Below, piece after piece: positions 28,068-47,979 of a stretch of DNA of 64,000 bases; within the stretch, counting starts at the first letter, position 1, and the number at the start of each line of letters is the position of its first letter. Under the pieces are notes generated by a model. That model was given only the letters and a program-made list of their open reading frames with translations. It was not told where the DNA came from and did no database searches. The position numbers and the translations under genes are program-made. The stretch is from the NCBI GenBank assembly GCA_001606155.1, contig LODT01000028.1:406735-470734 (forward strand), in the 5' to 3' direction. Source of the DNA: Tieghemostelium lacteum. Its lineage: Eukaryota.

Positions 28068-31000
28068 TTAAATTAATAGTTGTTTGAATTTTCCAGCTGT
28101 GATAATTAATTTAATTAGGTGGTCTTGAATGTTCAATTTACTAAGAGCAATTCTAGCTTCAGAGATTTTAAGTTTGGAAAGAAGTTCAGTAATCTGAGTT
28201 CTTGGTTGTTTTATATTGCTAAGGAAGACAAAGACTAGGAGAACTAATAGATGAGATAAGTTGGTACCTTGGGTTGCAGCAGGATTAAGACCGATCAATT
28301 GAGCTTCAGTAATACCAATGTTATTGTACAATGTAGCTTTATAGATGACTGGGAAAACACCATTTGCTAATATACTCTTAAGAGCAGTAGCTACAATTAA
28401 CTGTTGTTTTAGGTGTTCTGGATCTATTTGTTGTTGATCAGATGCTTTAAGAGCTGGTACCACTGGGGCCTTCATTGAACCTGATGCTCCAAATAATGCC
28501 TGTTTGAATGATAAACCCTCCGATGATGAGATAGAGGAAGATAAGGAAGATTTGGAGGAGGATGGAGTTGGAGCTTGTTGGACCTTGTTGAGAGACCATG
28601 ATCGCATTTTGGGTTCTTCCTCCTCCGGTTCCCATTTTTTTGACTTTGCAGCTTTGGAGTGTTTTTTATTCTTTTTTTTGGAGGTTTTGAGTTCTTCTTC
28701 ATCACTTATGTCATCACCCCAATTGTTTTTGAATATATCAAATGGTTGATCTTTTTCTACACTTTTTTTCTTTTGATCTTTTTCTATACTTTTTTGAACT
28801 GGTTCTTCAAAACTATCAAATAGAGAGAATCCCATGTCTTCATCGGAAGATTCTATCATTCTTTTTTCTGATTGTCTCATGGATAATGGCTGAGCTGGTT
28901 TGCTTGTTGATACAGTTGTTGGTGTTGGTGTTGGTGTAGTAATTGGTTCCAATGGATAATAACCAAATAAATCACCATCAGCGAATCCCATGTCAGATTC
29001 GTCTTCTTCTGGCATAGATTTTGCATAATGAGCACTTGTTGATTCTTTAGAATTGGTTCTTGAAACTGGCATACTGTAACCTCCACCATCGTCTCCAAAT
29101 AAGGAGAATCCCATATCATATTCTTCATCTTCTTCCTCTTCTAAATATTTTTCTTTCACCTCCTCTTGTTTAGCTAAAGGTTTTACAGAAGCAGCAGCAG
29201 AATAGACAGTACCTGATATTTTCGAATCAGATCTACCTCCGAAACCACCTTCACTATCCCAGTCTTCATCGTCGTCATCATCATCATTTTCTTCATTACT
29301 GTCATATTCTTTTCTGACAATAGATAGTCTTCTTGTTGACAATCTTGAAGAAAGAGTATCCATAAGAGCTGTTTTGAAAGACTTGTCATTTTCATTTTTA
29401 ACTTCTTTTGGAACAGATTTCAATGTCTGACCAGATTTAATAGACGATAATAGAGATTCAGTTGAAGACTCTTTTTTATCTTCAATAACTTTAGTTGGAA
29501 ATAAACTACCATGTTTCTTTCCACCACTTGGGACACCGCCAGTTGTAGGAGGTGTAATAGAGGATGATCTAGGTGATGGTGTGGTTGAAGAAGATGGTGG
29601 TGGAGGTGGTGGATATGATTGTCCTCCTCCGCCTCCCATGAAATACATAGCACCAGGAGCCATAGGTGGTGGTGTTGGTGATGAGTCCCAACCTATATGA
29701 GCTGCATTTTGGAATGAAGTTGGTGCACCAATTACTAAATCTTTATCATTTAATTTATCTTTCATAAATAGATCTCTCTTTCCCTTTTCTTGTTTAACTG
29801 GTGCCATTTGTTTTGGTGGAGGTGGACCTGAACTTACAGATGGTCTTGGAGGTGGAGTTGATGGTAATGGAGTGAGTGATTGTTGTGGTAGACCTCCAAA
29901 GGATGGCTTTGAATTACCAACTGAATAGAAAACTTGTTGAAAAGATGGTGTCTGTGGTGGACTTTGTACAGATTGTTGCTGTGGTAGACCTCCAAATAAT
30001 GACGTTGAAGGAACTGGGGCTCCAAATGCACTTGTTGATCCAAATTTTCCAGTAGCAGTAGAAGTTGAAGCTGATTGTACGACTGAGAAGCTTTGTTTCT
30101 GTAATTGGTGTTGTTGTATTTTTTGTGGTTGTGGTTGTTGCTGATATTGTACAATTGGAGTAGTTGGTGTATTATAAGGAAGTTGTTGCACAGTTATTGG
30201 TGATGGAGATGGAGGTGGAAGTGAGTTTGTAGATAATTTCTTTTTAAATGAAACCATTCCACCTTTGGATTTACTAAGCTTTTCTTTGTCAACAGATCTT
30301 TCTAAGACACTAAATGAAATATCACTTTTGATATCATTATTGTTATTATTATTGTTATTGTTATTGTTATTGTTATTGTTATTGTTATTGTTATTGTTTG
30401 AAAAATTATTTTTTAAATTGTTGAATGCTTCTCTTAAATTATTACTAAGTGATCTTTTTTTTTCTCCACTTTCTCTTGATCTGGAACCTCTACTTTCGCT
30501 CTCTTTGGGACTTTCATATATCTTTTTATCAATAACCTCAAGCTCACCAGATCCTAAAATGTCATCAACACTATTTTGAGGTGAATATCTAGAAGCACCA
30601 TTGCTCATAGTGGAACCTATTGTACCACCTCTACCTCTAGATCTACCATTGCTGCCACCTCTACCTCCATCTTTACCTCTTAGACTTACATTATCTCTAA
30701 TAGCATTTCTTGAATTTAATGCACCTGATAAATAAGAATCAAGCTCAAGGTCTAAAGAGTCAAAATGTTGATGTGCTTCTAATGATGGTTTTTCATCAGA
30801 TATGGGAATGTTTAATTCAATTGCACATAGTGATTCACTTTGTTCTTCAACTAGGTTTGCTAAATCTTGGAAAATGTCTTTAATTCCAGACATATCTGAT
30901 TGAAGTTGGAGGAGAGATTCATTTCTTTCATGGAGAATTTCATTATAATCCAACTCTTCTTTAGAAAGTTTGTAGGGTCCATATTCTTTTTCTACATTTC

Positions 31001-34000
31001 CAGTTGGATGAGGTCTATTAAGTTCCTTTACAGTTGGTGTGACCGTTTCAACTTTAAAAGTTACGGATGGTTTCATTGGAGATTTAATCCATTTATCTAG
31101 ATTGTTCTTTAACTGTTCTTGTTCATGTTCCTCATTTGAATCTCTGATAGAGGAACGTTCTTGTTCAGATTTCTTTCTTTCCAAACTCAACTCCAAGAGC
31201 TCTTGTTCATTTACAATAGTTGTAAGATCATCTCTAATCTCTTGCATAATCAATGTACTATCTGTATAAGAGTCCTCAGAAAGACTATCCAGTTCTGAGA
31301 TGGCATTGTCAAATGCCTCTTTAAGAATATGAGTTGATTTCTCAACTTGACCTGTTCTCTTATAGAATTGTCCTGCAAATTTACTAGCCCTTAATCTGTG
31401 TGGATGTGTTGATGGTAATGAAGAGAGTTTAGATAAGAGATTGTCAAGTTTTCCCGAGATCTTCTCATCCAATGATTTCTTGGCAATATCATTTTCTTCA
31501 AATTGACTTTGAGTGTCATAGAGTTGACACTCATCTTGAATTAAAGCAATTAGATTCTCATCAACTGCTTGGTTCTTTGGAACGGATTGTTCTATCAATC
31601 TCAATAGACTCTTAACCTGATAGATTAAATCAGTCTTTATCTTCAACTGACCTCTTTGAGCTTGTTTTAATTTTACAGGTGTCAATTTAGTTGGAGTTGA
31701 TACTTTAGTTGGTGTCTTTTTAGGTGTTGAAGTTGAGGGTTGTTGTTGTAAAAATACAGTTGGATCAAATTTAACTAATTCAATCTTGTCAAGAACCAAG
31801 TGTTTAATAGTTTCATTGATCATTTTAATCTCCTCTGTAGTATATTCTCCAAATTGTTCAGTAATTTGGTGGAAAATATTGATTGAATCTTGGTATTGTC
31901 CATTGGCATGCATGGATTTAGCCACATGAACTACTTGGTCTCTCTGGGAGAGTAAAGTGGAATCATTTGGATCTTGATCAGAGCCCTCAGCTTTTTCTTG
32001 CCATTGAATGTATGGTAATGTATCAATAACAGTTTGACTGACAATCTCTTGAATGGATGGTATATCTTTACGTTGAATTTCATTCTTTTCACGTTTTTCA
32101 ACAGCTACAAAACTGGTGAATTGTGTTACAATGGAATATTTAATACTGAGATTGATGATATCTTGTTTCTTTCCAAGTTTAATAAGGTCATTATCAAATT
32201 TTGAATTTGAATAGGTACCATCATTGTATTCTCTAATCATAGATCTTGCTGCTAATCTATGTATAAGACTACCACGAATGAAACCAATTTCAGGAGTGTG
32301 AACTGAATTTGTGATTAATCCACCACCTGGAGCTTGTGCAACGAGAGTAGCTCTAGTAGCAATTCCAGAGAATGCATATATCACTTGTCTTTCTTTCTTG
32401 AAGATTGAAGTAATGATATTAGGTGACTGAATAATCTTATCTGTAGAATCAAATTTAACTGAAATATTTGACATGGATGGTTGTAATGTTCTCTGAAGTT
32501 GATTGATAATCTTTTTTGGATTAGGTCTTTTGTTTGGTACAACAAACTCTGAATAACCACCACCTAGACGAGAGATGGATTTGATGAAATGTCTAGAAAC
32601 ATTTTCACCAATACCAAATGTAAATAATTTACAATAAGGTGATGCCTTTTTAACAAGTTCTTGCACTAAAGTTTCATTGGCAACGTTACCATCACTGTAT
32701 AGAATGATATTGTGTGGATTATTAGGTTTGGCATTCTCAGCTAACAAGAATAGTGATTGTAATGGTTGATGTAGTTGTGTGCCACCATAATGAGGTTTCA
32801 AACGATTGATATGATTCCAAGCCAATTGTAGATTGATTTCAGTTGGAGGTACATCTTCAACGAATAACCAATCAAATTGGTCACCAAACTGGACAATGTT
32901 AAAGAGTACTTTGAAACCACGAAGATTGGAAACAGTGAGTCTAAGAGCTCTTAACATATCCTCAAATGCATCACCAGCCATAGATGCTGAGAGATCAACA
33001 AGTAATGTCAAATGTGTTAGAGAATCCTTGTCATTGTCGATATCTAATTTTGGATAGAATGCCAACATGGATGCATGGTGACCTTGATCATCAACTTCCA
33101 CCCACATTCTAGGTGAATATGGTTCCTCAAGACCAATAAGTAACTGGAAGTTCTTACCAAGACTACTGTCTCCACTTGTGAGTTCAACAGTAGCTTTAGT
33201 GTTAGTCTTCTTTACACGAATTGGATGAGTTGGAGATGTTAATTTAACTATATTATAAGGCATTTCAACACCAACTTGTAGAGTCAAATCAAGGTTTTTG
33301 TCATCACCAATATGGGTAGTAGAAGTTGTGTTTTGAGTTACAGTACTACCACTTTTAGCACGTTGTTGAGGACTGATAGATGATGGTAAAATAAATGAAA
33401 TATCCAAACCATCCATTGACAGCTCTGTTATATAAGTTATCTTTATCAATACATCAGCTTGTGGTGGAAGATTACCAACTGAAACTGAGAAAACATCTGG
33501 TTTATCTTCATCCATTAAATAAGCACCATCACCTCTTTCAACAGCTTCCCTATACTCTCTATGTGCTTTCTCTTTCTCTTTACATTCACCAACTACATGT
33601 TTACCATTGATGAATGCTTCGAAACCACAAACTGCAGCCATTTCATCTAAAGGAAATACATATTTTGCCTCAATTTGAGAACTTGATGAATTCTTGTAAT
33701 GTTGATAGATAACAACCTCACCAATTAAATCCAGAACTTTAGCACGTACATGAACATCTTTTAATGGAATATCAACTTTTCCACCAGATGCAATAAGACC
33801 TACTTCCTTAGGTTCCTCTTCCATATCCTCAGGTTTAGAAGATGGTTGGATCTGGTCACTTACCTTGTCTTGTGGTAATGTTAGTTTTGGAGCACTTTGT
33901 GCACTAACTGCCATAGCTTGAGGTACTGCCAAAGGAGTTGATGTAGTTCTTGCATCAGGCATCTCAAATTCAACTAGATACAAGAGTTTTTGTTGTTTAG

Positions 34001-35935
34001 GATCATAGATTACAATTTCATCATCCTGGAAAGCACTTTGTACAGCAGATGTTGATGCAACACCTTGTACACTTTGGTAGCCTTTTGGAGGGCTGTCTAA
34101 TTGGTATTGATGTTGAGTGTATTTCTTTGTGTTACCCAAGGCAGCTTGGCATACAAACATGTATTTTCTTTGTGAGAAATCGGATCTCTTACAGTACTGG
34201 GTTGAAGTTGAACTCTTTAGACCAAAGTATATACCACTACCAAGGTAACCAATATCTCTTCTGCCTGTGGATAGAGATGTTGATACATTAGGTGTAAGCA
34301 AACCTCTTGACAAAATACCCAAGACATTACTAGGGTTACTACCATGATAGAGTGTCTTAATGTTAGGAATGGAGAACTGAAGATTCAACTCTTCGTTTCT
34401 CTGTGTTGAGTATATCTCCTTGATTACAATATCAGGATTCTGTTGTTTAATCTGGTCATAGAGTTTCTTGTGATCCTTGGAGTTATCAGAAAGACATTGA
34501 ATATTACAACGTAATGCACGATAACGTGTATCCACTATAGAGGTTGAAGAAACACCCAAAGACTCACCAACATTCAGTATATCCTTAATCAATTGAATGC
34601 AATCTTGAATATCCTGAAGTTCAGATACAATCTGAGGAAGATTTCCAGAGGCTGTCAACTGAGCAATCTTGCATTGCTTAAGTTGAGGTAAAGCCTGATA
34701 GACTTCATTGAATAGTTGTACAGTTGTTGGTGATGACAAAAGTGGTTTACCATTATCGGTTTTCATCAGAGTTGCCAATTGGAAGAGTGACAATTCAGCC
34801 TTCTCCACTTGAACCAATGTTATATCACCAAGGTCAGATTTGATTGCACCTTCAGGTGACAATGTCAATTTAGCCTTACACATCAGTTTAGTACCTAGAG
34901 TTGACATGGCTTCCTGATAAATACGTTCAATAAACTTTTGAATAGGTTCGGGAAGTGATGATTTCCCAGAAGAAGACTGTAAATTTGAACTTTGTTGCAG
35001 TCGATCTGAACCTACTCTAGCTGAAGAAACTTGAATTTTAGTGTATTGTCTATTGGAGGTGTACTCTAAAAATATTTGATTATAAAGTTTGAGAGCATCT
35101 TCAATGGTAGATGATGAAACCCATTCTTTAGTTTGATCAACACTACCAGTTGTACCATAGTGCATAAATACTCTATAGAAACTTGGTAATCCTGAATCTG
35201 AAGATCCACTATCACCTCCAAGTGATATAAGTGACAATGCTTTACCAGCTACGTGCAACTCCAAACACATAAACTCTTGTGTATCCAATCTATGAAGGAT
35301 ATTGTATTTAATAATGTGGTATTTATCTTCTGGAAATTGTGATCCAAGATCACTGGACTGCACAGCATTAGGTTGATATTTAACTTTCTTTAACTGTTCT
35401 AATGAAAAACCACTACTACTCTTGTTGTCACCATTTTCAAGAATATCAGAGAAATTCAATGACTTGTAATGAAACTCTTTAATATTATATTGAGATACTA
35501 ATGAATACTCACTAGTTGACAATAAAGTTCCAAATGAAATGGAATCATCAAGATATCTCTTTGAAAGTATTGGTATATTTAATTTTATAGCTTTTTTGAT
35601 ATTAAATGATAATGAATCCACATTTATATCTTTTTTATCTGAATCTGTTTCAGATACTTCTACTTGTTGTTGTTGTTGTTCATCTGCTTTAACTAAATCA
35701 TCAAAATCACCATTATAAATAAAGTAATTAACCTATTGTAAATTAAAGTATTAGTAAAGTAAATAAAATGGTCATTTTCAATGGTGTGTTGGTTCTTAAG
35801 TTAACTTACTTTATGATTTAAAACTGCAGAAACTGTTCCTTTATATTTTAAAACAAGATCTTGTAAAGCTTTTTTAGCTTTGTAACCTTGATTGGTACAA
35901 TCTAAAAAAAAGGTTTGATGTTCAAATATTGACAT
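28068..35935 (-). CDS. Giant (~2,596 aa) vault-PARP/PARP4-like poly(ADP-ribose) polymerase (BRCT-WGR-PARP-VIT-vWA) fused to a long C-terminal extension carrying a WASP-like CRIB/Pro/WH2/C/A module
   Basis: Exon 1 is 35810..35935 (MSIFEHQTFFLDCTNQGYKAKKALQDLVLKYKGTVSAVLNHK, BRCT start). The intron is 35733..35809 (GTAAGT..CAATAG). Exon 2 is 28068..35732, one uninterrupted ORF. The WGR domain is at about 35030-35330. The PARP catalytic domain is at about 33960-34370, with the H-Y-E triad in LYHGSNPSNVLGILSRGLL, GSGIYFG and DDEIVIYD. The VIT domain is at about 33400-33790 and the vWA domain (LLVDLSASMAGD) at about 32480-33020. The C-terminal motifs are listed under findings. Confidence 0.85.
30336..30398. 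repeat. (GTTATT)n microsatellite encoding a ~24-residue poly-Asn run in the PARP gene
   Basis: Perfect hexamer repeats on the plus strand, translated on the minus strand as NNNNN... within SNNNNNNNNNNN..DIKSD. Confidence 0.9.
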
Positions 35936-36294
35936 TTTTATATTCACTACTGATCAAGTAATAGAGAATAACAATAAGATATTTACAAATACTATTACTA
36001 ATTATCTGATCAGAAAAAAAATCTAATCAGTAAATTTGAAAAGTTTGAAAATTTATTAAAAACAGGATATTTTTTATAGAATTTTGTTGGAAAGCTCATT
36101 TATCTCAACATATTAAAAGATTTTTCATTTCTTTATTGTAATTCTCAAAATGAAATGTAATAAAATATGATAATATTATAATATATTTTAATATGTGTGG
36201 TTCTAGTTCTAACAATGTTAGACTATTTTCACCAATAAAACCAAAATTCAAAAAATCTAAAGTATCTAAAGAATCTTCTACTCTGAAATAACTC

Positions 36295-37885
36295 CTACAT
36301 ATCGTAAATGGATGAGTTTATTATGACATTATATTTGGAGAATACATCTAATAAATCAAGTTTAATTTGAGTTAAACGGTGTTCATTAGATAAATTAAAA
36401 CAATTCATTTGTTGAATTGTTGTATTGATTCTAAAGAGTTCAATAAATTCTTTTACTATATCAGTTGTGAATTCAAAGGTATCTGCCCATGGAGGTGGAA
36501 GAATAAATGTATGAAGAGTTTTGTTGATTGTTAGAATTTTAATATATAGTTCACAATGATTATAATTGATATTACGGCTGTACGAAAAATCCTCTATAAC
36601 TAACGCTGTTAGTGTGGTGTTGTGAGATAGTGATTTTATAAACAATGTTAAATCATTTTCAATACTATTTTCATTGTGATGGAGATAGTATACTATATCT
36701 TTGAATATTTGGATGTGGAATTGACAGAAGTTGATTTAGAACACCAAAATCCAATTCATAAAAATCAACAGTATGAAGATTTTTATGTACTGATATATCA
36801 TTAATCCTCATTGAGCTTGATAAATCATGTAATGTGAGATACCGTAGATTTTTAAATTCTTTAACTTTAACCGTATTTTCATTGGGTGCGAAAATGGATT
36901 TTATATTATCTTTGTGTTTCCATAACTCTAATATTCTGTCATTATTTGTTGTGAAAAGTTCTAGAGAATGTATCAATTGGTTTGTTATGTTATCTGATAA
37001 TGTTTCATTGTTCCATTTTAAAGAAACTAAAATTAGAGTACCAGTTTTGATATTGGATAGAAAATCAACAACTATTTGATGTGAGGTGGTAATATTTGAC
37101 ACCACTCTCAAACGTTGCAGATTCATTGATTGTGAAGAGTGATTTAATATTTCCAAAACTTTATCGTATTGGTTTTTATCTTCATTTAAGACTATATTCT
37201 CTATCTCTAGATTTTGGCAATTCAAAGAGTTTTCCAAGAGAGACTTTAACATCCATTGTGACATTGTAATTCTATCTAAACTTATTTTAGTTAGAGAATT
37301 GGGTTGAAAAGAATTATCATTTTCTCCAATAAAGGTAAAAAAACCAAACCCTAAGCTGATGACTCTTCTATTTTGAATTAACTCTCCAATTCTATTAAAT
37401 TCAATTTTGGATTGCCCTACACTCCAGGTCCAACTCCAACTTTTAATGTGGATGTCAACGTTTGATAATGATTTTAGTTTGTTGAATAGAAATTCTTCTG
37501 AATCTGAAAATGAGGTTTCAACAACTATAGATTCTAAATTCTTGAAATGAGATATTGATTGATCTAAAGTTTTATTTTGTTCATCTTTGATTTCAATCTG
37601 ACTAACTTGATCGCTAATGATTTCATTTAAATGTTTAACTGCATCAGTTGAATATCTAGGTAAAATGAATCTATAATTATACCATTTATATTTATTTGCA
37701 AGTGCTATGAAATCAGGTAATAATTTAATTGTTTTTGATAAATCATTCACATGTCTATATCGTAATTTTACAATTATTGATTGGTCCATTCTTTACTGAT
37801 CAATGTATATTTTCGTAAAAACATATAAACGTATTCAATATCTATTGAATGATTTAGAATTGGATCTAAAATATTAATTACAGAT
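36295..37885 (-). pseudogene. Decayed copy (A) of the F-box-like/LRR-like gene at 40395..41984
   Basis: Colinear with copy B but split into two ORFs (36671..37789 and 36295..36645). There is a 1-nt deletion at 37785 (TTGGTCC versus TTGGTTCC in B), which frameshifts the N-terminus. The start-codon region is replaced at 37880/37881. Confidence 0.7.
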
Positions 37886-39667
37886 ATTGATATACCAAAG
37901 GAACATTGGGACAATGAATCAGTTCAAAAATGGTGTAAATTCCAATGAATTTACCTGAAAAGGATTTATTAATTATTAATGACTTAGATGGATTTTGTTT
38001 AGTATATTTTTATCAATGTGGAAATTTAATAAAACAATTAAGGGATTTTGGTGTATCCCTCCCTTCTTCACATAGAATTCTTACAAAATTCAATCCACCA
38101 CAAACACAATGTAAACTAAACATCTATCATAATCTAACGCTTTTTGTTCATTTTAACTTATATTTTTTATATAAAATTCAACACAATTAAAAACCTGTTG
38201 ACATTCAACTACACTATAGGGCAGCAGGGTATGTAGATTGCTTGAATAATGTAAAGTATTTAGGTGTTGAAACTAGATATTAACTTAGTAATAATTAGCT
38301 GATAAAAGTTGGACATTTGTAAACCCAGTAAATCAAGGAAATTATTACCACATTGATCCAAAAAATTTACAATTATAAAAAAGCAATCCAAGGTGGGAGT
38401 TGGTTAGTTCAGGGGTCATATAGAAGTGGCAAAACAACCCATATGATAGCACTTGAAAAACAAATCCAAAAACAATTTTTTCCATTCATTTTCACTTTGA
38501 ACCCTTATATTGACATTTGGAAAAATATATCAGGTACAATCTCAATAGATTACCCTGATTGTGGGCCTATTAAAGATGTCAAGGAATTTAGAGACAAGTT
38601 TCTAGCCAATAAGAAGTATTTTGGAGGGAAGAATGTAGTTTTATTATTTGATGAGTTCCAATGTTTACTTGATACCGAAGAGTACTTTGTATTCTGCTCA
38701 GAAATGAAAAATATAATGGATAACAGAGCCACTTATAACATACAAGCCATTTTTGGTTTCGGGACATTTCAAACTACTAAATTGGCAAAAATAGATAGCA
38801 AAAGCACTTTTAGTCCATTTCATATGCCAGAAACAACTATTATAGAACCACTTCCAGAGAAATTGGTATATATACTACTCAATGAATGGGCAAGTACTAT
38901 AGGAATGGTAATACCACCTTCAATTCTAAAAGATATATATATAACTATTGGTGGGTATGCAGGTATTCTTGGACTGCTTGGATTAGCTCTCCAGAGTTCA
39001 ACTAGTATAACTTAAGTCTAGCCATAATAAAAATATGACAATGAACCAGTGGATGTTTATTCGTGAACAGACTTCTAGTAATTTACAAAAACAACCTCAT
39101 TCCAGAAATTAGTATTAATAATTTCAAGTGACGAGAAAATTTCAAAACTTGCAGAATATATTTTATATGGTCCAGAACCATTTTTTTTCTCACCAGAAAA
39201 TATTGAATATATGATGACGCTTTTAGATTATGGGTTGTTAAGACAAGATAGCAAAAGCAACAAATTTTATCTTTCCTCTCCATTAGTTAGAGAGTTCTTA
39301 TTAGCTAAATACTATAGAGAGGTTAACTCCATATATTATTTCAACAGAAGTTAAAACAAGTGTTATCGGAAACAGAAGAATAGATATTTTGGTTAGAAAT
39401 GGAAAAAGAATTATATTTGAATTGAAATCTGATTTGAAATGGGAGATTGCTGATTTAGCTCAACAATCTGTAATACAATTTGATAGAGATGCAGAGGATT
39501 TTCAAGTTCATACAGCCATTATATTAAATTTAGTCCCCAATGGATCAAAATTTTCTCATATAGAATTTATCCATAATCAAGTTAAATATTTTATATTCGA
39601 GGTAATTTTTGATGGAAACACATTCACACTCAACACAAAAGAAAATATTGAAGCAACTTTGAAATAA
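37881..39667 (+). pseudogene. Frameshifted gene encoding a SAM-like domain, a P-loop (Arch_ATPase/AAA-like) NTPase, a winged-helix region and a PD-(D/E)xK nuclease-like domain
   Basis: The pieces lie in different frames. The SAM-like part is HWDNESVQKWCKFQ* / MNLPEKDLLIINDLDGFCLVYFYQCGNLIKQLRDFGVSLPSSHRILTKF. SWTFVNPVNQGNYYHIDPKN follows. The NTPase part is ORF 38353..39015, with Walker A GSYRSGKTT and Walker B VVLLFDEFQ. The winged-helix part is KLAEYILYGPEPFFFSPENIEYMMTLLDYGLLRQDSKSNKFYLSSPLVREFLLAKYY. ORF 39389..39667 carries RRIDILVRNGKRIIFELKSD (D..ExK). The gaps between pieces are too short to be introns. Confidence 0.55.
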
Positions 39668-39774
39668 ACAATTTTTTTATTCCCATCATTTCCTATCTCT
39701 AATATCAATCAAAACAAATATCTCATAAATACCTGAATTACAACCTCCAATAATATTAAAATCTATTATTTACT

Positions 39775-40110
39775 TTTTGTAAATGGATGAGTTTATTATG
39801 ACATTATATTTGGAGAATACTTCCAATAAATCAAGTTTTATCGGATTCATCTGATAAATGAAAACATTTCATTTTTTGAATTGTTGTATTGATTATAAAG
39901 AGTTCAATAAATTCTTTAACCATATCAGTTGTGAATTCAAAGGTATCTGACCATGGAGGTGGAAGAATAAATGTATGAAGAGTTGTTGATTGTTAGAATT
40001 TTAATATATAGTTCACAATGAATATAATTGATATTACGGCGTAATCCTCTATAACTAATGCTGTTAGTGTGGTGTTATGAGACAGTGATGTTATAAACAA
40101 TCTTATATCA
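39775..40110 (-). pseudogene. Truncated third copy of the 3' end of the LRR-like gene family
   Basis: Strongly similar at the nucleotide level to 36295..36650 (AAATGGATGAGTTTATTATGACATTATATTTGGAGAATAC...). It has several indels and stops and no upstream continuation. Confidence 0.65.
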
Positions 40111-40394
40111 TTTTTTGTAAGACATCAATATCTAATTGTAAGACATCGATATCTAATAGAGTCTTATAGTCAAAGTATATATATATATATAGTTTTCCTA
40201 TATATAGAAGTATTCTTAGAGATCTTGAATCTCTTAATAATCTTATATAATATTATTGTTGTGTATGATATAGTTCAAGAGATAACAATAATATAGAACT
40301 ACGGTAAAGAGTAAATATCTTTATAATTTTCGTAAATATCTCTTTAGAAATGAAATGTAAAGTTATGTTGGTAATAAAGAATTTACATTTACAT

Positions 40395-41984
40395 TTAGTA
40401 AATGGATGAGTTTATTAGAACATTATATTTGGTGAATACATCCAATAAATCAATTTGAGTTAAACTGGGTTCTTTAGATAAATCAAAACAATTCATTTGT
40501 TGAATTGTTGTATTGATTCTAAAGAGTTCATTAAATTCTTTTACCATATCAGCTGTGAATTTAAAGGTATCTGACCTTGGAAGTGGTAGAATAAATGTAT
40601 GAAGAGTTTTGTTGATTGTTAGAATATCAATATATAGTTTACAATGATTATAATTGTTATTAAACATATACGAAAACCTTTTTATAGCTAACCCGGTTAG
40701 TGTGGTGTTGTAAGAGAGTGATGTTATAAATATGCCTAAATTATTTTCAATACTATTTACATAGGAACGGAGATCGTGTATATTATATCTTTGAACACTT
40801 GAATGTGGAATTGACAGAATTTGATTTAGAACACTTATATCCAATTCATAAAATTCAATAGTGTGAAGATTTTTAAGTGCAGAAAAATCATTAATCCCCA
40901 TTGAGCTTGTTAAATCTGGTAATGTGAGATACCGTAGATTTTTAAATTCTTTAACTTCATATTTACTAGCACCACTTACCCAAATGGATTTTATATTATC
41001 TTTATGTTTCCATAACTCTAATATCCTATCACCCTTAGTTGTGATGATAAGTTCTAGAGAATGAATCCATTGGTTTGATATATTATCTGGTAATGTTTCA
41101 TTGTTCCATTCTATATAAACTAAAATTAGAGTACCAGTTTTGATATTGGATAGAAAATCAACAACTACTTGATGTGAGGTGATTATATTTGCTGAGTCCA
41201 CCCTCAAACGTTGCAGATTCATTGATTGTGAAGCATGTTTTAATATTTCATAAACTTTATCGAAATTGTTTTCATCTTCATCTAAGACTATACCATGAAT
41301 TCCTAGATTTTGGCAATTCAAAGAGTTTTCCAAGAGAGACTTTAACATCCATTGTGACATTTTAATTCCATCTATAATTATTTTAGTTAGAGAATTGGGT
41401 TGAAAGGAATTTGTATTTTCACCAAAACAGGATAAAGACAAAAAATGTATGCTGATAACTCTTCTATTTTGAATTAACTCTCCAATTCTATTAAAATCTT
41501 CTAATTGTGGCACCACAAAAATTTTAATATTGATGTCAATGTTAGATAATGATTTTAGTTGGTTGATTAGATATTCTTGGGATTTTAAAAATGAAGTTTC
41601 AACAACTATAGATTCTGAATTCTTGAAATGAGATATTGTTTGATTTATATTTTTTCTTTGTTCATCATGGATTTCAATCTGACTAACTTGATCTCTAATG
41701 ATTTCATTTAAATGTTTATAATAACAATTAGGTAAAATGAATCTATAATTATACCATTTATATTTATTTGCAAGTGCTATGAAATCAGGTACTAATTTAA
41801 CTGTTCTTGGTCTTTGTAAATTATTAACATGTCTATATCGTAATTTTACAATTATTGATTGGTTCCATTCTTTACTGATCAATGTATATTTTCGTAAAAA
41901 CATATAAACGTATTCAATATCTATTGAATGATTTAGAATTGGATCTAAAATATTAATTATCAGATAATTAGGTATCATCGCCAT
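40395..41984 (-). CDS. F-box-like / leucine-rich-repeat-like protein (intact copy B)
   Basis: 529-aa uninterrupted ORF. The N-terminus is F-box-like (IPNYLIINILDPILNH..LISKEWNQ). Irregular LRR-type periodicity follows (NLRYLTLPDL, LKNLHTIEFYELD...). Confidence 0.7.
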   Translation of the reverse strand: MAMIPNYLIINILDPILNHSIDIEYVYMFLRKYTLISKEWNQSIIVKLRYRHVNNLQRPRTVKLVPDFIALANKYKWYNYRFILPNCYYKHLNEIIRDQVSQIEIHDEQRKNINQTISHFKNSESIVVETSFLKSQEYLINQLKSLSNIDINIKIFVVPQLEDFNRIGELIQNRRVISIHFLSLSCFGENTNSFQPNSLTKIIIDGIKMSQWMLKSLLENSLNCQNLGIHGIVLDEDENNFDKVYEILKHASQSMNLQRLRVDSANIITSHQVVVDFLSNIKTGTLILVYIEWNNETLPDNISNQWIHSLELIITTKGDRILELWKHKDNIKSIWVSGASKYEVKEFKNLRYLTLPDLTSSMGINDFSALKNLHTIEFYELDISVLNQILSIPHSSVQRYNIHDLRSYVNSIENNLGIFITSLSYNTTLTGLAIKRFSYMFNNNYNHCKLYIDILTINKTLHTFILPLPRSDTFKFTADMVKEFNELFRINTTIQQMNCFDLSKEPSLTQIDLLDVFTKYNVLINSSIY

Positions 41985-42222
41985 GCTTTAAAATCATAAA
42001 GTGTGTTAATATTCATTTAAATATCTTTAATCAATATTTTTGTTAATTTAAAAAATCCAGTAAATTTCGTTGAAAAAAATTCAAATCAATGATATAAGTT
42101 AGACTTGTAAAATAACACTTTATTTGAAACTTGGATTGTATTTAATTTTTTTTTTTTTATTAATTTATTTTTTTTGTAACGCTGACCAAATTAAACCGAT
42201 ATATTTAATTTCAGGGTGATAG

Positions 42223-45200
42223 ATGGAAGACTTAAAAATCACATCTGAGATTAAGGAAGAAAAAAACACAGATTCTTCTACTAATACCAAAGAAGCAACA
42301 GACAGTAAATCAGTCAGTGATACATTAATTAATCCTATCACAAATGAGCAGTCATCATCATTATCATCTACAGATAAACCTCAATCACCACCACAAAAAA
42401 CAGATGATGATATTGTAAATAATAATATTAATATAAGTATTAGTAGCAGTGGAAATGAAAGCACTGATACATTACTGAATACAGTAAAATCTAGTATAGA
42501 TCAATTACCAGATAAAGAAATTAAAGATAAATCTAATAGTAATGAGTCCAAAAATAGTAGTAGTAGTAATAATAATAATAATGGATTTGAATTATTTTCA
42601 AATGAATCCATGGCAATAACTGAAGTAACTACCTTACAGAGATCTAGGTCATCTTTGATTTCCTCTGCCAGTTGTATACCTTTAAAGACAGGAAATAACA
42701 TTTTATTAAATTCTGATGAAAATCAATTGGATTCTGTACAGAAAGTATCTATTAAGTCCACTGGACCTAATGTTGATCACAGTTTGAATATAAATAATAA
42801 TGAAAAATCACAGTCCAATGAGAAAAAAGTTAAACCTGTAAAATTACATTTATCTGATAATGCAATACCTACAATATCAAGTTCATCTTCATCGAATGTG
42901 GCCAATAGCAGTGGTGCTACTAGTGCACCTGTTGTAAAATATTTCCCATTGACTCCTTATCTATCGAAATTGGATCAAATTAAAATTGTTTCAGATACTC
43001 TGTCGAGTGCAGATCAAAAGTCACCTCAACAGTCACAAAAAGCATTGGAAAGTCTGTTAATTGAAAATAAAAGAGGAACTTCAGATATGACATCCCTAAT
43101 AAGTCAAGCTGATTCTGATAACCCTCAAACCAATACAACTTCAATTCCAACCAATGAAAACTCATCAACATTGGGATTCTCACAAGACTCCATAGACGAT
43201 GATGAGTTGTCATTTGATGATTTAAATAGTTCTTCAAATTTAACACCACCAACATCTCCAATTCCAATTCAGTTACCTCCCACACCTAACACCACTCCAA
43301 TTTCAAGTCCAATCAGATCATCCATTCTCACCAGTGAATTACTTTCATTTGCATCTGAAACACCTCAATCTAATACCCAAACCATTGAAAAACCAATCGA
43401 AAATGAACCAATAGAAACTGAAATTAAAAAAGTTGATATATCAAAAGAAGAAGGTAAAGAAGAAGTAAAACCTTCACCATCTATAGCATCATTAGTTAAA
43501 TCTGAAAAACCATCAACTCCAACTACCTCCACTGACACAACTAACACTAATACAACACAACCAACAACTCCAAAACAACCAGAATCACCAACTAAAAACA
43601 CTAATAACAATAATAATAATAATAACAACAATAATGGTAGTAAAGATGTATTTGATCAATTTAATGATCATAGATCATCACTACAATTTTGGAAAGAGAT
43701 GTTTAAGAAGAAGAAGAGATCTAATAAGATTGAACATGATAATGCAAAAATACAGAAAGCTAAAGAACTTGAAAAGAAACATAAAGATGAATTTGATAAA
43801 AAAGGTCCACAAATACAATACAAGAAACAATATAAACCTAAAGAAAAGGATGGTGCAAATAAGACTGATGATGATAATGATTATTTTAATAGAGTTATTG
43901 ATGATGGTTTTAAATTGACAACTCTACCTACTGAAGCTGAAGATGATGGTCATGTATTTATACTCTATGGAAATTTGAATAAATTAGTTGTTGATGTTAA
44001 AATGGTACCTTGTGGTAACCATGTAAGTTCATCAGTTGCACTTAATCATTGGTTGAAACATGACTGGGCACAGTTTCCACCTGATATCAGAAACAATATT
44101 CAAGTTTCAACATCACCAGTGGATTTCAAGAGAGGTAAAGATAGAGTTTATAAATTACAAAATTGGCCTACACAGTATCCGAATATAAGTCAACCTTGGT
44201 TTTGTAATGTTGTGCCCTCATTCTATCCATACCCTATTAAAGCTGAATGGTATGTCAAAGGTGCTCAAGAGTATTTAAATAAGGTTGGTGAAGATCTCCG
44301 AAAAACCAACCCACCAATTAAAAACGGTCGTGCAAAGTATCTTATATCACTTCCTATTGTTGGAACTGGTGGAGGTGGTGGTAGCTATCTAGCTGGTGAG
44401 ATCCTAACACTACTCATTAACGAACTCTATGCTGCATCTAGAAAATGGAAGTATGATGTAGTTTTAGTAACCAACGAGATTTCAATGTACACTGCTGCCA
44501 TAAACAAGAGAAATGAGCTAATTAGTAAAAACAAAACATTTAGCTACAATTACAGGACTTTACTAGGACCTTTAATGGGAAAAGCAGAGTATCTCTCCAA
44601 GTTGATAGATAAGGATAAACTGGCGTCTTTTGTAGGAAGTGGAATGTCAATATGTGCAGGGTTGCCTAACTGGCAGTACCTATTACAAATGTTGGGTGAG
44701 AAGTTGGGAATGTCAAAAGAAGAGATTAGGTCAATGGAACAATTACATTATCTAGATAGAGCAACGGTTTTGGAAGGTCGTTGGAAGAAGGCTTTGGCGA
44801 AATACCATCCACCGGATTTAAGTTCATTCAAGTCGCTGTATAATAGTAATAATCCAGATGAACAGTCTCAGGAGGAGGAATCGAATATTCAAATTAATAA
44901 GTTTCATCAGATGCATAAGGATATTTATAAGGAGGTTAATGTACCTATGCAAACAGAGATTGCAAATCTTATGAAGGTCTCACATGCAGGTTTAACTCAC
45001 TTCCTACTTACAAGTACAAATATTCAAGAGTTTATCACAACAAACTATGATGAGTGTTTGGAGATTGCCAGTAAGTCTATTGATAGACCTGTTTGTGTTT
45101 TACCTTATGAAAACCCTACATTGTCTAATAAGAGATGGGTATTGAAGCTTCATGGCTGTGTTAAACATCCTCAAGATATTGTCATTACACGTGAAGATTA

Positions 45201-45849
45201 CATTCGTTATGGTGATAAGAAAGAAGCACTTTCTGGAATTGTACAAGCATCTCTTTTGACTAAACACCTTTTATTTGTAGGCTTTAGTCTGGTAGATGAC
45301 AACTTTTATCAAGTAATGTCAGCTGTCAAGAAAGTAACCAACAACACTCAGAAAAAGAAATATGGTACCGTTTTATTCATTCAAAAGAATGACTTAATGT
45401 GTGAACTCTGGGGTGAACATCTAGACATTATCTGCTTTGATACCAGTACCAATGGAAAGTCACAAAGTATTGCAGAGTGTGCTAGAAAACAAGAAATATT
45501 CCTAGAGTATTTGGCATCACTATGTTGTGTCAATAATCATACTAGTCATCTAATGGAAAAAAGATTTGATTGTCTTCTATCGGAAGGTGAGAAAATATTT
45601 AGAGATAAAATTATATCATTTGTAGATGATCTACCTCAAGAAGCAAAAGAAACTCAAGCATTTCATAAATTCCAAGAGTTTCTCGACCAAATTGGTTACA
45701 ATTATGGTGGTTATCAATATCTTCATCAAATACAAAATATTCAAAAATCTTTTCAAAAACCAAAATGGAAGACTTTTGGTGAACCTTCCAATAATAATAA
45801 TAATAATAGTAATAATAATAATAGTAAATCGAACAGTAAAAAGCAATAA
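42223..45849 (+). CDS. Large protein with a low-complexity N-terminal half, a macro-like domain and a SIR2_2 (ThsA/FAM118-type) NAD-binding/NADase-like domain
   Basis: 1,208-aa ORF. The macro-like segment is at about 43950-44480 (HVFILYGNLNKLVVDVKMVPCGNH ... ISLPIVGTGGGGGSYLAGEILTLLINELY ... YDVVLVTNE). The SIR2_2 motifs are at about 44620-45500: FVGSGMSICAGLPNWQYLL, FITTNYDECLE, LKLHGCVKHPQDIVITREDYIRY and LLFVGFSLVDDNF. Confidence 0.8.
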   Translation: MEDLKITSEIKEEKNTDSSTNTKEATDSKSVSDTLINPITNEQSSSLSSTDKPQSPPQKTDDDIVNNNINISISSSGNESTDTLLNTVKSSIDQLPDKEIKDKSNSNESKNSSSSNNNNNGFELFSNESMAITEVTTLQRSRSSLISSASCIPLKTGNNILLNSDENQLDSVQKVSIKSTGPNVDHSLNINNNEKSQSNEKKVKPVKLHLSDNAIPTISSSSSSNVANSSGATSAPVVKYFPLTPYLSKLDQIKIVSDTLSSADQKSPQQSQKALESLLIENKRGTSDMTSLISQADSDNPQTNTTSIPTNENSSTLGFSQDSIDDDELSFDDLNSSSNLTPPTSPIPIQLPPTPNTTPISSPIRSSILTSELLSFASETPQSNTQTIEKPIENEPIETEIKKVDISKEEGKEEVKPSPSIASLVKSEKPSTPTTSTDTTNTNTTQPTTPKQPESPTKNTNNNNNNNNNNNGSKDVFDQFNDHRSSLQFWKEMFKKKKRSNKIEHDNAKIQKAKELEKKHKDEFDKKGPQIQYKKQYKPKEKDGANKTDDDNDYFNRVIDDGFKLTTLPTEAEDDGHVFILYGNLNKLVVDVKMVPCGNHVSSSVALNHWLKHDWAQFPPDIRNNIQVSTSPVDFKRGKDRVYKLQNWPTQYPNISQPWFCNVVPSFYPYPIKAEWYVKGAQEYLNKVGEDLRKTNPPIKNGRAKYLISLPIVGTGGGGGSYLAGEILTLLINELYAASRKWKYDVVLVTNEISMYTAAINKRNELISKNKTFSYNYRTLLGPLMGKAEYLSKLIDKDKLASFVGSGMSICAGLPNWQYLLQMLGEKLGMSKEEIRSMEQLHYLDRATVLEGRWKKALAKYHPPDLSSFKSLYNSNNPDEQSQEEESNIQINKFHQMHKDIYKEVNVPMQTEIANLMKVSHAGLTHFLLTSTNIQEFITTNYDECLEIASKSIDRPVCVLPYENPTLSNKRWVLKLHGCVKHPQDIVITREDYIRYGDKKEALSGIVQASLLTKHLLFVGFSLVDDNFYQVMSAVKKVTNNTQKKKYGTVLFIQKNDLMCELWGEHLDIICFDTSTNGKSQSIAECARKQEIFLEYLASLCCVNNHTSHLMEKRFDCLLSEGEKIFRDKIISFVDDLPQEAKETQAFHKFQEFLDQIGYNYGGYQYLHQIQNIQKSFQKPKWKTFGEPSNNNNNNSNNNNSKSNSKKQ

Positions 45850-45938
45850 CATCAAATAAATAATTTTAAATTGAGAAATGGAAGTATATTCAAAATTTTA
45901 TCAAAGTGCATTATATATTGAATGTAAAGGTCTGTCTT

Positions 45939-46245
45939 TTAGTAGCAACCACCACCTCTTCCATAACCACTATAGACATTGACATTTCCATAGATATTAA
46001 TATCAATATCAGCATAAACTATAGTGTTATAGGTATCACCACCACGACCACCATATGGACACCAACTAGCAGATTTCTCATTTGATTGACCAGAACTAAG
46101 GATGGGACCACTGCTTAAAGATGCATTGGTGACTGATTTGGTTGGGTTTCCGAGAGCTGAGATGGTTTCTATAGAAATTATTTAGAATGTTAATAAATAT
46201 TCTTTATTATCAAATATTTTTATAATATTTACTTAATAATGTCAT
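45939..46245 (-). CDS. HssA/2C/7E-family small Gly-rich protein (80 aa), two exons
   Basis: Exon 1 is a 13-nt micro-exon at 46233..46245 (ATGACATTATTAA) with a GTAAAT donor. The intron is 46169..46232 (64 nt) and ends CTATAG. Exon 2 is 45939..46168. The product is MTLLKTISALGNPTKSVTNASLSS...YGNVNVYSGYGRGGGCY. It is not in the ORF track because it is spliced and short. Confidence 0.7.
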
Positions 46246-46350
46246 TGTTGAATGATGATGAAGTAAAATTTGAAATGTATTTATACGAATTTAAAAGATT
46301 TAAATTAACTGAATGAAGTATTTCCATATTTTATTTTGATATATAATTCG

Positions 46351-46435
46351 TGTGTGTTTCTTTTGGTGTGTTGGGTTTTTTTTAGAAAATATACAAATAC
46401 AGGAGAGTGACGCGAAGTACACACCCCACACACTC
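46351..46435. promoter_or_regulatory. GT-rich and CA-rich G-box-like pair upstream of the HssA-like gene
   Basis: TGTGTGTTTCTTTTGGTGTGTTGGGTT lies at 46351-46377 and ACACACCCCACACACTC at 46419-46435. Confidence 0.35.
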
Positions 46436-47979
46436 TAATTGATTTTTATAATTACTTTTTTCTTTTTTTTTGATTCTCTGATGATGACATTATTATTGAA
46501 AATTGGATTATAGTTTGGTGGTATACCATTTTTATAGTATGCCACTCTTTTTACTTTGGGATTTTGTAAATTTGGTATATGTTCACAAGTTAGATTATAT
46601 TGACCAAAGTTCTTGATAATTTTCATGTCCTTATCAGGTGATGGTACTGAATATTCAATGGAAATACCTAGAAGTTTAGGAGCACCTTCTGGTAAATGTG
46701 AGAAGAGTTTCTCAATGCTATTCTCTTGACTTAGATAATCAGGTGTAATCAAGTGTAATTGTTCTAGTGATTTACTCTGTGATATGGCTTTTGAAAAACA
46801 CCATCCTAATGATCCGTATAGTTCATATCTTGTTATATTCATTGTAAGGATTCTCAGTGACTTACAATCAGTTAGCATGGCTTTAAAGTTTGTACTGGTT
46901 GATAATGAACATTCTTCAGATAGTGTTAGGTTATCAATACGAAGATTTACCAATGACTCTGATTTGTTATTGAGATGTAGATAACTTTCAATACATCCTT
47001 GAAAAGCATGTATAGTAAATGATGTAATATGTTTCAGAAATATCCATCTAGCAAAATAATTTTCATCAGTTATCCAATAAAGATCCAGTGTCTTTATATT
47101 TTCATATTTGTTTAAAAGTGGGAATAGTTCGTTTAGTTCTTGGTATGCATGAACCTTCAATGTCAGAGTAGACAGATTTGTAAGAGAATCAAACATCAAA
47201 AATACAGAAGAAGATATATAACTAATAGTCAGATTCTTTAGTGACTCTACCTGGTTATTGATAATCCTTGGATCCATAGTATAATCATCTGAGATAAACT
47301 TTAATCTCTCTAATCTATTTGGAGCATAAGTTGACAAAAAGTCAATTGAAGTCAATTTACTAGTTGGATGGTGAAAGTTAATTAAACTGGTTGTATTGGG
47401 TTTCTTGAATTCTAAGTGAAATGATGTTATTGATTTTTCAACTGCCAATAACAAAACTTTAAATGTGTCAACATGGTCACGGTTATCGAGTGTCAGAGTA
47501 AGATGTTCTAGATTTGGTATAACCATTGTAGATTGAAAAGGTGGAAGTAAACCATTTATACCAACACTATTCAATTTTAGAGTTTTTAACACAGGAAAGT
47601 TTTTTACAGATAACAAGTTGTGTGATAATTGATTGTAATGGATATCTAATGACTCTACGTGTACAAATAGTGTTGATAAACCTTTAACGAAGGTTAAACC
47701 TGCCATGTTATTTACTGCCATATTTGATATTATCAATGAGCTAGGTAACCCAAGTAAACAGTAAGGACTACGTAAATGTTCAACAGCTTCTCTAATATTA
47801 CCATTATTTTTCATTAAATCCCAAACTGATATAAATTTGAAATAGTGTTTATGTAGATATTCAAATAGTGCCTTATTGACTAACCCTAAATGCATCTTAT
47901 ATCTAAAATCATAATAATCTGTATCAACTACATAATGAATAATTTGATACAACAATACATGAGGTATTGGAAAATACAT
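46435..47979 (-). CDS. F-box-like / LRR-like protein (a family distinct from 40395..41984)
   Basis: 514-aa ORF. The N-terminus FPIPHVLLYQIIHYVV is followed by repeated L..L.L/N-type segments (LKTLKLNSVGINGL, LEHLTLTLDN, LKNLTISYIS, LSTLTLKVHA...). Confidence 0.65.
   Translation of the reverse strand: MYFPIPHVLLYQIIHYVVDTDYYDFRYKMHLGLVNKALFEYLHKHYFKFISVWDLMKNNGNIREAVEHLRSPYCLLGLPSSLIISNMAVNNMAGLTFVKGLSTLFVHVESLDIHYNQLSHNLLSVKNFPVLKTLKLNSVGINGLLPPFQSTMVIPNLEHLTLTLDNRDHVDTFKVLLLAVEKSITSFHLEFKKPNTTSLINFHHPTSKLTSIDFLSTYAPNRLERLKFISDDYTMDPRIINNQVESLKNLTISYISSSVFLMFDSLTNLSTLTLKVHAYQELNELFPLLNKYENIKTLDLYWITDENYFARWIFLKHITSFTIHAFQGCIESYLHLNNKSESLVNLRIDNLTLSEECSLSTSTNFKAMLTDCKSLRILTMNITRYELYGSLGWCFSKAISQSKSLEQLHLITPDYLSQENSIEKLFSHLPEGAPKLLGISIEYSVPSPDKDMKIIKNFGQYNLTCEHIPNLQNPKVKRVAYYKNGIPPNYNPIFNNNVIIRESKKKKKVIIKIN

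Follow-up and report, generated by a model that had tools for sequence, protein, structure and literature searches.

Does a 20-kb interval in the genome of the social amoeba Tieghemostelium lacteum hold genes that work together in immunity, or genes that act independently and came to lie side by side? The interval sits in a window of 64,000 nt (contig LODT01000028.1 of assembly GCA_001606155.1, positions 406,735 to 470,734), the whole stretch of DNA analysed here. An earlier note made from the sequence alone had proposed it as a candidate immune-type island of five elements: a PARP with VIT and vWA domains, three F-box/leucine-rich repeat (LRR)-like genes or relics, another LRR-like gene, a decayed SAM/P-loop/winged helix-turn-helix (wHTH)/PD-(D/E)xK gene, and a macro-like SIR2_2 protein. 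All five were present within 20 kb at the positions given in Table 1. On balance, we favor a reading in which lineage-specific genes of conflict type have gathered in a rearrangement-prone patch next to a conserved PARP4-type gene, and not one of a co-inherited functional module.

Three open reading frames (ORFs) of the interval had exact T. lacteum matches in GenBank (DLAC_05563, DLAC_05564, and DLAC_05565). The G+C content was ~30% throughout the window, with no compositional break at the interval. Self-hits were left out of the homology searches.

Rearrangement, decay, and linkage

F-box/LRR-like copies. Searches with tblastn and blastn recovered three related F-box/LRR-like copies in the window, as had been proposed: copy A (intact), copy B (frameshifted), and copy C (a 3′ relic). 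Copy B shared 87% nucleotide identity with copy A over about 1600 nt, had lost its ATG together with the rest of the first ~6 codons, and carried frame-breaking indels of -1, -1, and -2 nt relative to copy A besides in-frame ones. Relic C, at ~390 nt, retained only the last ~130 codons with stop codons inside, and was 88% identical to copy B and 83% identical to copy A. Homology among the three ended at the ends of the coding sequence. The ratio of nonsynonymous to synonymous substitution rates (dN/dS, Nei-Gojobori) for copies A vs B was 1.03 (bootstrap confidence interval 0.73-1.49), so these paralogues are not under plain purifying selection, an outcome that the earlier note had named as counting against an island. 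Copy B being dead, a value of ~1 means that relaxed or diversifying evolution also applies to the lineage of copy A. At the 5′ end, copies A and B shared a 96-nt tract with 100% identity, vs the 87% background. We estimate that, at 13% divergence, a run of this length would arise by chance somewhere in the gene with a probability of ~2e-3, and the tract is therefore likely a product of gene conversion between the two copies. The signs of duplication, pseudogenization, and gene conversion reported earlier were thus all recovered.

The decayed gene and its junction. A stitched translation of the decayed gene matched one protein, DLAC_07413 (618 aa), encoded on another contig. On this alignment the decayed gene is a 5′-truncated, multiply frameshifted paralogue of intact DLAC_07413, a predicted SAM, AAA-type NTPase, wHTH, and PD-(D/E)xK protein. 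The decayed copy had no start codon and began at DLAC_07413 residue 15, right against the truncated 5′ end of copy B. Its frame changed near 37943, 38370, 39010, and 39100, and it also had in-frame stops (at least four frameshifts or stops relative to DLAC_07413). Residues 447-505 (~59 aa) were deleted, and an intron-like gap at about 38110-38296 followed the N-terminal domain. The 3′ part was a well-kept putative PD-(D/E)xK segment with 89% identity to DLAC_07413. Pfam and PADLOC returned no matches to the pseudogene translation, and its identity was taken from the intact paralogue instead, with the SAM part assigned by profile and the NTPase and nuclease by sub-threshold matches in the family. 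Because the decayed gene and copy B share their junction, a single junction beheaded both genes; relic C, at the opposite flank, shows that a third LRR copy was for the most part replaced. We looked for tRNA genes and inverted repeats pointing to a transposon origin of the rearrangement and found none. Separately, the annotated DLAC_05563 (38443-39015), a 190-aa ‘hypothetical protein’, is an ORF fragment within this pseudogene and not a real gene.

These observations show that an ectopic, 5′-truncated copy of the SAM-NTPase-wHTH-nuclease gene came to overwrite part of a tandem array formed by a young F-box/LRR-like gene. One junction took the start codons of both the incoming gene and LRR copy B, both of which then decayed, while copy A remained whole and probably traded sequence with copy B through gene conversion. 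The interval genes would act independently, their proximity reflecting a build-up of dispensable, fast-turnover genes in a permissive region. As the evidence stands, the array documents birth and death of genes within an F-box/LRR-like family of young age.

Repeat character. The F-box assignment of copy A came solely from the UniProt label of DLAC_05564, ‘F-box domain-containing protein’; Pfam gave no F-box even at E = 10. For LRRs, no Pfam match fell below E = 0.016 in the F-box/LRR-like genes, and canonical LRR motif counts and hydrophobic periodicity were not above shuffled expectation. The AlphaFold2 model of copy A, of low confidence (predicted local distance difference test score 51), showed a regular alternation of strand and helix, and its top 30 Foldseek matches were almost all LRR proteins, including NLRC4, RNase inhibitor, and the F-box proteins TIR1, MAX2, D3, and SKP2. 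An immune-type character of these genes is possible. The ‘other LRR-like gene’ was the weak point of the original proposal: the 514-aa ORF was intact and convergent with the Macro-SIR2_2 gene, but it had no detectable similarity to copies A-C (blast searches; hhalign probability 0.2%) and no Pfam support for LRRs. An FNIP gene occupies the same position downstream of the SIR2 gene in Heterostelium album, and we considered a conserved SIR2-LRR pair. We rejected it since the 514-aa ORF was unrelated both to copies A-C and to the H. album FNIP gene (E = 0.46).

Linkage. The synteny comparison had one comparator, the distant species H. album. There the SIR2 orthologue was surrounded by two TTL genes and by bZIP-like, FNIP-repeat, FN3/EGF, and PKS genes. 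A tblastx comparison of the whole window with the 23-kb H. album locus found only the SIR2 gene shared, and no other within ±10 kb. Conserved linkage, whose absence the earlier note had listed first among the points that would refute the island, was therefore missing from the one species compared. The component families were scattered over many contigs, with DLAC_07413 and further T. lacteum ATPase-nuclease paralogues sitting on contigs other than this one. We found no evidence for a functional or inherited link that would make the genes one island; the ATPase-nuclease copy is dead and its paralogues lie elsewhere.

In a co-functional NAD+/ADP-ribose immune island, the PARP4-type protein would write an ADP-ribose signal or be triggered by infection, the macrodomain would read that signal and switch on the SIR2 NADase, the F-box/LRR-like proteins would serve as sensors or regulators, and the ATPase-nuclease would be a former effector. 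The PARP, macrodomain, and SIR2 are connectable biochemically via NAD+ and ADP-ribose, the SIR2 gene and LRR copy A are divergently transcribed across a spacer of only 238 bp, and the LRR-like genes combine a dN/dS of ~1 with gene conversion. Bacterial Macro-SIR2 relatives occur in ADP-ribose-centered conflict neighborhoods (the system in PMC9503650; see below), and the vault component TEP1 was recently reported with an immune-type NADase domain (bioRxiv 10.64898/2026.09.04.749371). Against this, none of these neighbors accompanies the SIR2 orthologue in H. album, the rearrangement that brought in the ATPase-nuclease copy, itself now dead, destroyed two genes, and no relationship joins the 514-aa gene to the other repeat genes. 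Genes are closely spaced across the whole window as a rule, and the combination was picked out post hoc. We regard such an island as quite improbable. Its strongest form, a eukaryotic NAD+/ADP-ribose defense island in which a complete PARP4-type writer, a bacterial-derived Macro-SIRim reader/NADase, and fast-evolving F-box/LRR-like sensors act together, appears slightly less probable still.

Macro-SIR2_2: a predicted NADase gene of bacterial type

Domains and fold. Pfam, PDB profile, and fold matches upheld the original reading of DLAC_05565 as a macro-like and SIR2_2 protein. SIR2_2 (PF13289) scored 104 bits vs a cut-off of 24.5, and PADLOC matches over the SIR2 part were ThsA (4.7e-34), PDC-S25, LmuA, and Dsr2. 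PDB profile searches returned ThsA (1e-33), DSR2, KomC, and FAM118B for the SIR2 part and macroH2A1.1 for the N-terminal part. By fold comparison, the SIR2 domain was nearest to ThsA, KomC, and Avs5, and the macrodomain to PARP9, MacroD, and Af1521. In an alignment of 32 sequences, N392, D394, and H428 were invariant, with the TTNYD and KLHG motifs at positions 939 and 975 of DLAC_05565, and the N-terminal domain motifs GHVF..GDL and LP.VGTGGGG were conserved. The macrodomain kept the glycine-rich loop LPIVGTGGGGG; the first GGG loop was not obvious in the alignment. No CxxC zinc motif occurred anywhere in the 1208 aa. The missing zinc Cys tetrad sets SIRim apart from classical sirtuins (bioRxiv 10.1101/2024.09.18.613514). 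Judged by these motifs, DLAC_05565 is a macrodomain joined to a ThsA-like SIRim SIR2 with intact catalytic residues, predicted to cleave NAD, and an immune-type character is plausible for this gene. Ahead of both domains lay about 575 aa of N-terminal sequence, low in complexity and specific to eukaryotes.

Bonhomme et al. (bioRxiv 10.1101/2024.09.18.613514) described a eukaryotic SIRim clade fused to Macro that branches with ThsA-like bacterial proteins and is of bacterial origin and patchy. By its features, DLAC_05565 fits this published SIRim-Macro class. It shares with the ‘clade C sirims’ and ThsA the catalytic N and H, the lack of a zinc tetrad, the macrodomain fusion, an apparent bacterial origin, and a patchy occurrence in eukaryotes, and its nearest solved relatives are ThsA, KomC, DSR2, and Avs5. 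It differs in domain order, which is Macro then SIR2 in T. lacteum and SIR2 then SLOG in ThsA, while type II ThsA has a transmembrane segment and Macro without SIR2. The 575-aa low-complexity extension with its KY(F/L)PLTP.LS.L.QIK motif is a further difference from ThsA and clade C. The TIR (ThsB) partner of Thoeris was found neither among window ORFs of at least 150 aa nor in five bacterial neighborhoods.

By analogy with ThsA, the macrodomain may bind an ADP-ribose-containing ligand, and ligand binding may control oligomerization and activation of the SIR2 domain, which would then hydrolyze NAD+.

Relatives and origin. The nearest relatives of DLAC_05565 were three dictyostelid proteins, from H. 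album (PPL_12611), Synstelium polycarpum, and one unnamed EukProt entry. Of the remaining ~115 matches, nearly all were about 520 aa long, covered both domains, and had 25-37% identity. Every non-dictyostelid match with an organism name or contig placement was bacterial, the named ones being Chloroflexi, Deltaproteobacteria, Arthrobacter, and Mycobacterium. The Macro-SIR2 search returned no protein from D. discoideum, D. purpureum, Cavenderia, or Acytostelium. The dictyostelid copies were monophyletic in 50/50 neighbor-joining bootstraps. With bacterial relatives, dictyostelid monophyly, and the species that the search did not return taken together, the most economical history is one ancient bacterial acquisition followed by later losses. 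An interruption in the H. album gene, at a point where its T. lacteum counterpart runs on, argues against contamination. We propose that an early dictyostelid acquired the Macro-SIR2_2 gene once from bacteria, and that the gene would then have gained its long low-complexity N-terminus and been lost in several lineages. As the evidence stands, this is a clean, dated case of the probable domestication, by social amoebae, of a Macro-SIR2 NADase gene from bacteria.

Two side observations concern the dictyostelid copies. The deposited 909-aa model of H. album PPL_12611 (our locus L001, 10001-13173) omits ~160 SIR2-linker residues encoded in a continuous ORF; this ORF breaks near 12850, and the gene model appears to misplace an intron. 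The motif KY(F/L)PLTP.LS.L.QIK..SE in the N-terminus (window 42937-42984, aa 239-254) was common to the dictyostelid orthologues P0001, P0002, and P0003, and could have been acquired once the gene had moved, for docking or for regulation.

Bacterial contexts. We read five bacterial Macro-SIR2 neighborhoods. That of Arthrobacter contained an NrtR-like Nudix regulator, ARPP-1, ARH+DSPc, and NERD, and that of Mycobacterium contained ARH+DSPc and an NrtR-like Nudix regulator. On one metagenomic contig the neighbors were TY-Chap3, ARPP-1, GmrSD, and an SLFN-like helicase, and on another bacterial contig the gene lay near PncA and NAPRTase; the fifth contig had nothing relevant beside the Macro-SIR2 gene. 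A role against ADP-ribosylation by viruses has been predicted for ARG-centric ADP-ribose conflict systems (Iyer et al. 2022, PMC9503650). The likeness to them lies in the bacterial homologues, which adjoin ARH+DSPc, NrtR-like Nudix, ARPP-1, or TY-Chap3 genes in 3/5 contexts. In contrast, 2/5 bacterial contexts were without these partners, and the amoeba locus has none of them. The Macro-SIR2 gene thus appears to have reached the amoeba alone, without its partners. A comparable case is Dictyostelium TirBCD, where a bacterial immune NADase domain was likewise transferred alone to dictyostelids, without operon partners, and domesticated (Culbertson et al. 2026, PMC13142454). The fold there is TIR and not SIR2 and the species group is another; TirC was tested experimentally, whereas Macro-SIR2 is known from sequence. 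As an observation in its own right, bacterial Macro-SIR2_2 genes recurred beside ARG-type genes (L004 5480-9569, L005 7001-11634, and the JGI contig of P0030), which ties a sirtuin-type enzyme to ARG-centric systems, first defined by having no coupled ADP-ribosylating enzyme.

A PARP4-type gene and the weighing of the readings

PARP architecture. The main PARP ORF, 28068-35621(-), encoded 2517 aa with PARP catalytic (2.3e-21), VIT (9.8e-37), vWA (VWA_3, 4.6e-16), and 14-3-3-like (14-3-3, 2.9e-12) domains, all above Pfam cut-offs. The gene had two exons, 35935-35810 (126 nt) and 35732-28068, separated by a 77-nt GT..AG intron (35809-35733). Splicing in exon 1 completed a BRCT domain (BRCT_2, 29.4 bits vs a cut-off of 27.3 for the spliced N-terminus), which extends the PARP with VIT-vWA that had been noted. 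The domain order was BRCT, PARP catalytic, VIT, vWA, and 14-3-3-like, then a long low-complexity tail. The catalytic domain contained LYHGS, GSGIYFG, and DDEIVIYD motifs, which from general knowledge of PARP motifs we take to be the H-Y-E triad. The best database matches of the N-terminal 1100 aa were animal PARP4 proteins, at 30-38% identity and with 90-100% query coverage in most matches. Apart from a few unnamed sequences, all matches in this search were from animals; the lack of dictyostelid matches is possibly a word-index limit and not proof of absence. BRCT, PARP (H-Y-E), VIT, and vWA stand in the identical order in PARP4/vault PARP (the complete block is window 32322-35935), and on these matches the T. 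lacteum protein is an orthologue-grade PARP4, a conserved eukaryotic gene type and not specific to an island. In D. discoideum, two vPARP-clade proteins were reported without VIT and vWA (Citarelli et al., PMC2964712), and for this reason the T. lacteum PARP is more complete than the PARP4 of the model species.

The C-terminal 1400 aa were unrelated to animal PARP4. As side observations, the C-terminal half of the ORF (window 28068-31900, aa ~1230-2517) held the 14-3-3-like domain, and a WH2-like motif, LLSSIKSGQTLKSV, lay at aa 2057. Three DMGF motifs (aa 2169, 2210, and 2262) resembled the tail of ribosomal P-stalk proteins (Ribosomal_60s 2e-5, below the cut-off). Animal PARP4 is without these 14-3-3-like, WH2-like, and P-stalk-tail-like features.

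Immune role or none. Several of the component classes, taken singly, are of conflict or immune type, plausibly so the SIR2 domain, with ThsA, KomC, Avs5, and FAM118B as its nearest matches, and the SAM-header family treated below; for the PARP such a character was unproven. If the genes lay together by chance and none had an immune role, the PARP would serve the vault, the Macro-SIR2 protein would be a metabolic or regulatory NAD+/O-acetyl-ADP-ribose enzyme, the F-box/LRR-like proteins would be ordinary SCF substrate adaptors in drift, and the pseudogenes would be debris. The full PARP4 architecture fits this account, as do the bacterial relative beside the NAD-salvage genes PncA/NAPRTase and another without conflict genes nearby. 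Neutral drift also gives a dN/dS of ~1, and neither F-box nor LRR had Pfam support at any useful threshold. The SIR2 domain, however, groups by sequence and fold with defense NADases and is without the zinc Cys motif of classical sirtuins, 3/5 bacterial neighborhoods carry conflict-system genes, and a SAM header with variable C-terminal modules is typical of conflict proteins. We consider the absence of any immune role unlikely, if less so than the island.

Several points weigh against the rearrangement-prone patch that we prefer. Relatives closer than H. album, the one locus compared, might keep the linkage. Two NAD+-consuming enzymes, one with an ADP-ribose-binding domain, lie 6.3 kb apart (PARP gene to Macro-SIR2_2 gene), which is suggestive. 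The macrodomain could be an eraser rather than a sensor, and the PARP may be patchily distributed and not simply housekeeping, as the search gave no dictyostelid VIT-vWA orthologue. Were the genes truly linked, eukaryotes would have in this locus a rare equivalent of a bacterial defense island, with a testable immune role for vault PARP, and a defense-island reading, if true, would tie this long-enigmatic PARP to NAD+-depletion immunity in an amoeba. The TEP1 NADase (bioRxiv 10.64898/2026.09.04.749371) and the Dictyostelium TIR NADase (PMC13142454) keep this bolder reading worth checking.

The SAM-header family and other features of the window

SAM-header proteins. A SAM-like header of ~90 aa (MNTDNNNTQPTSFNDIDIPKEHWNNESVQKWCK...) was near-identical in at least 11 T. 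lacteum genes on at least 7 contigs (proteins P0121, P0203, P0207, P0209, P0213, P0220, P0225, P0226, P0229, P0232, and P0278), the window copy lying at 37880-38110. Searched against the PDB, the header profile matched almost only SAM domains (liprin at 2e-4, then polyhomeotic and SARM1). At least six C-terminal modules occurred behind it: NTPase-nuclease, AAA_35, STAND-like NTPase, REase-like, RING-H2, and coiled coil. The intron-like gap after the header in the window copy suggests shuffling of a header exon, and an immune-type character of the family is plausible.

An exhaustive HMMER search for the family of the decayed gene found 100 relatives, including T. lacteum DLAC_06663 and DLAC_01878 and proteins of Acytostelium, Cavenderia, Arcella, and Soliformovum; with relatives across these genera, the NTPase-nuclease core is widespread in Amoebozoa. 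Among 14 family members, Pfam matches, mostly below cut-offs, were to AAA_22 (six), AAA_16 (three), AAA_35 (three), TniB (three), and nSTAND3 (two). PDDEXK_3 was matched by 3/14 members, with a sub-threshold best E-value of 3.3e-4. Walker A (GSYRSGKTT) and Walker B (LLFDEFQ) motifs were visible, and the PD-(D/E)xK-like motif RIDILV...IFELK was present.

Header-plus-variable-effector conflict proteins with Crinkler-type (CRN) NTPase+REase modules were reportedly treated by Zhang et al. in 2016. Like Crinklers, the T. lacteum family pairs one N-terminal header with a choice of many C-terminal modules, one of them a predicted P-loop NTPase with a putative PD-(D/E)xK nuclease behind it; the family has expanded in a single species and gives weak TniB-like matches. 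Unlike in Crinklers, the header is SAM-like and not the ubiquitin-like LxLFLAK type, and the likeness noted is one of module layout (CRN domain content is summarized in PMC12957317). A single SAM header with many C-terminal modules in T. lacteum may be a more original lead than the Macro-SIR2 gene or the F-box/LRR-like array.

Table 1 Features of the T. lacteum interval, in window coordinates.
Feature	Position	Strand	Basis
PARP4 (vault PARP)-type gene	28068..35935	-	Pfam domains, PARP4 database matches
F-box/LRR-like copy B, pseudogene	36296..37886	-	nucleotide alignment to copy A
96-nt tract 100% identical to 41864-41959, F-box end of copies B/A	37785..37880		repeat comparison
Decayed SAM-header/AAA-type NTPase/wHTH/PD-(D/E)xK gene, partly DLAC_05563	37880..39664	+	paralogue DLAC_07413
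F-box/LRR-like relic C	39768..40154	-	tblastn/blastn to copies A, B
F-box/LRR-like copy A, intact, 529 aa, DLAC_05564	40395..41984	-	exact GenBank match
Macro-SIR2_2 gene DLAC_05565, 1208 aa, intronless	42223..45849	+	Pfam, homologues
Macrodomain, about aa 577-780 of DLAC_05565	43951..44562	+	motifs GHVF..GNL, D..P, LPIVGTGGGGG
SIR2_2/SIRim domain, about aa 798-1108 of DLAC_05565	44614..45546	+	TTNYD at 939, KLHG at 975
514-aa repeat-rich ORF, the ‘other LRR-like gene’	46435..47979	-	intact ORF

Remaining genes. The remaining ORFs of the window were housekeeping genes, as had been stated: Brix, a RING protein, ATP11, PNKP, MAP65, DBR1, ThyX, GATase, and a DEAD_2 helicase. Among them, the ORF at 22472-23134 encodes ThyX (Thy1, flavin-dependent thymidylate synthase), an enzyme type otherwise mostly bacterial.

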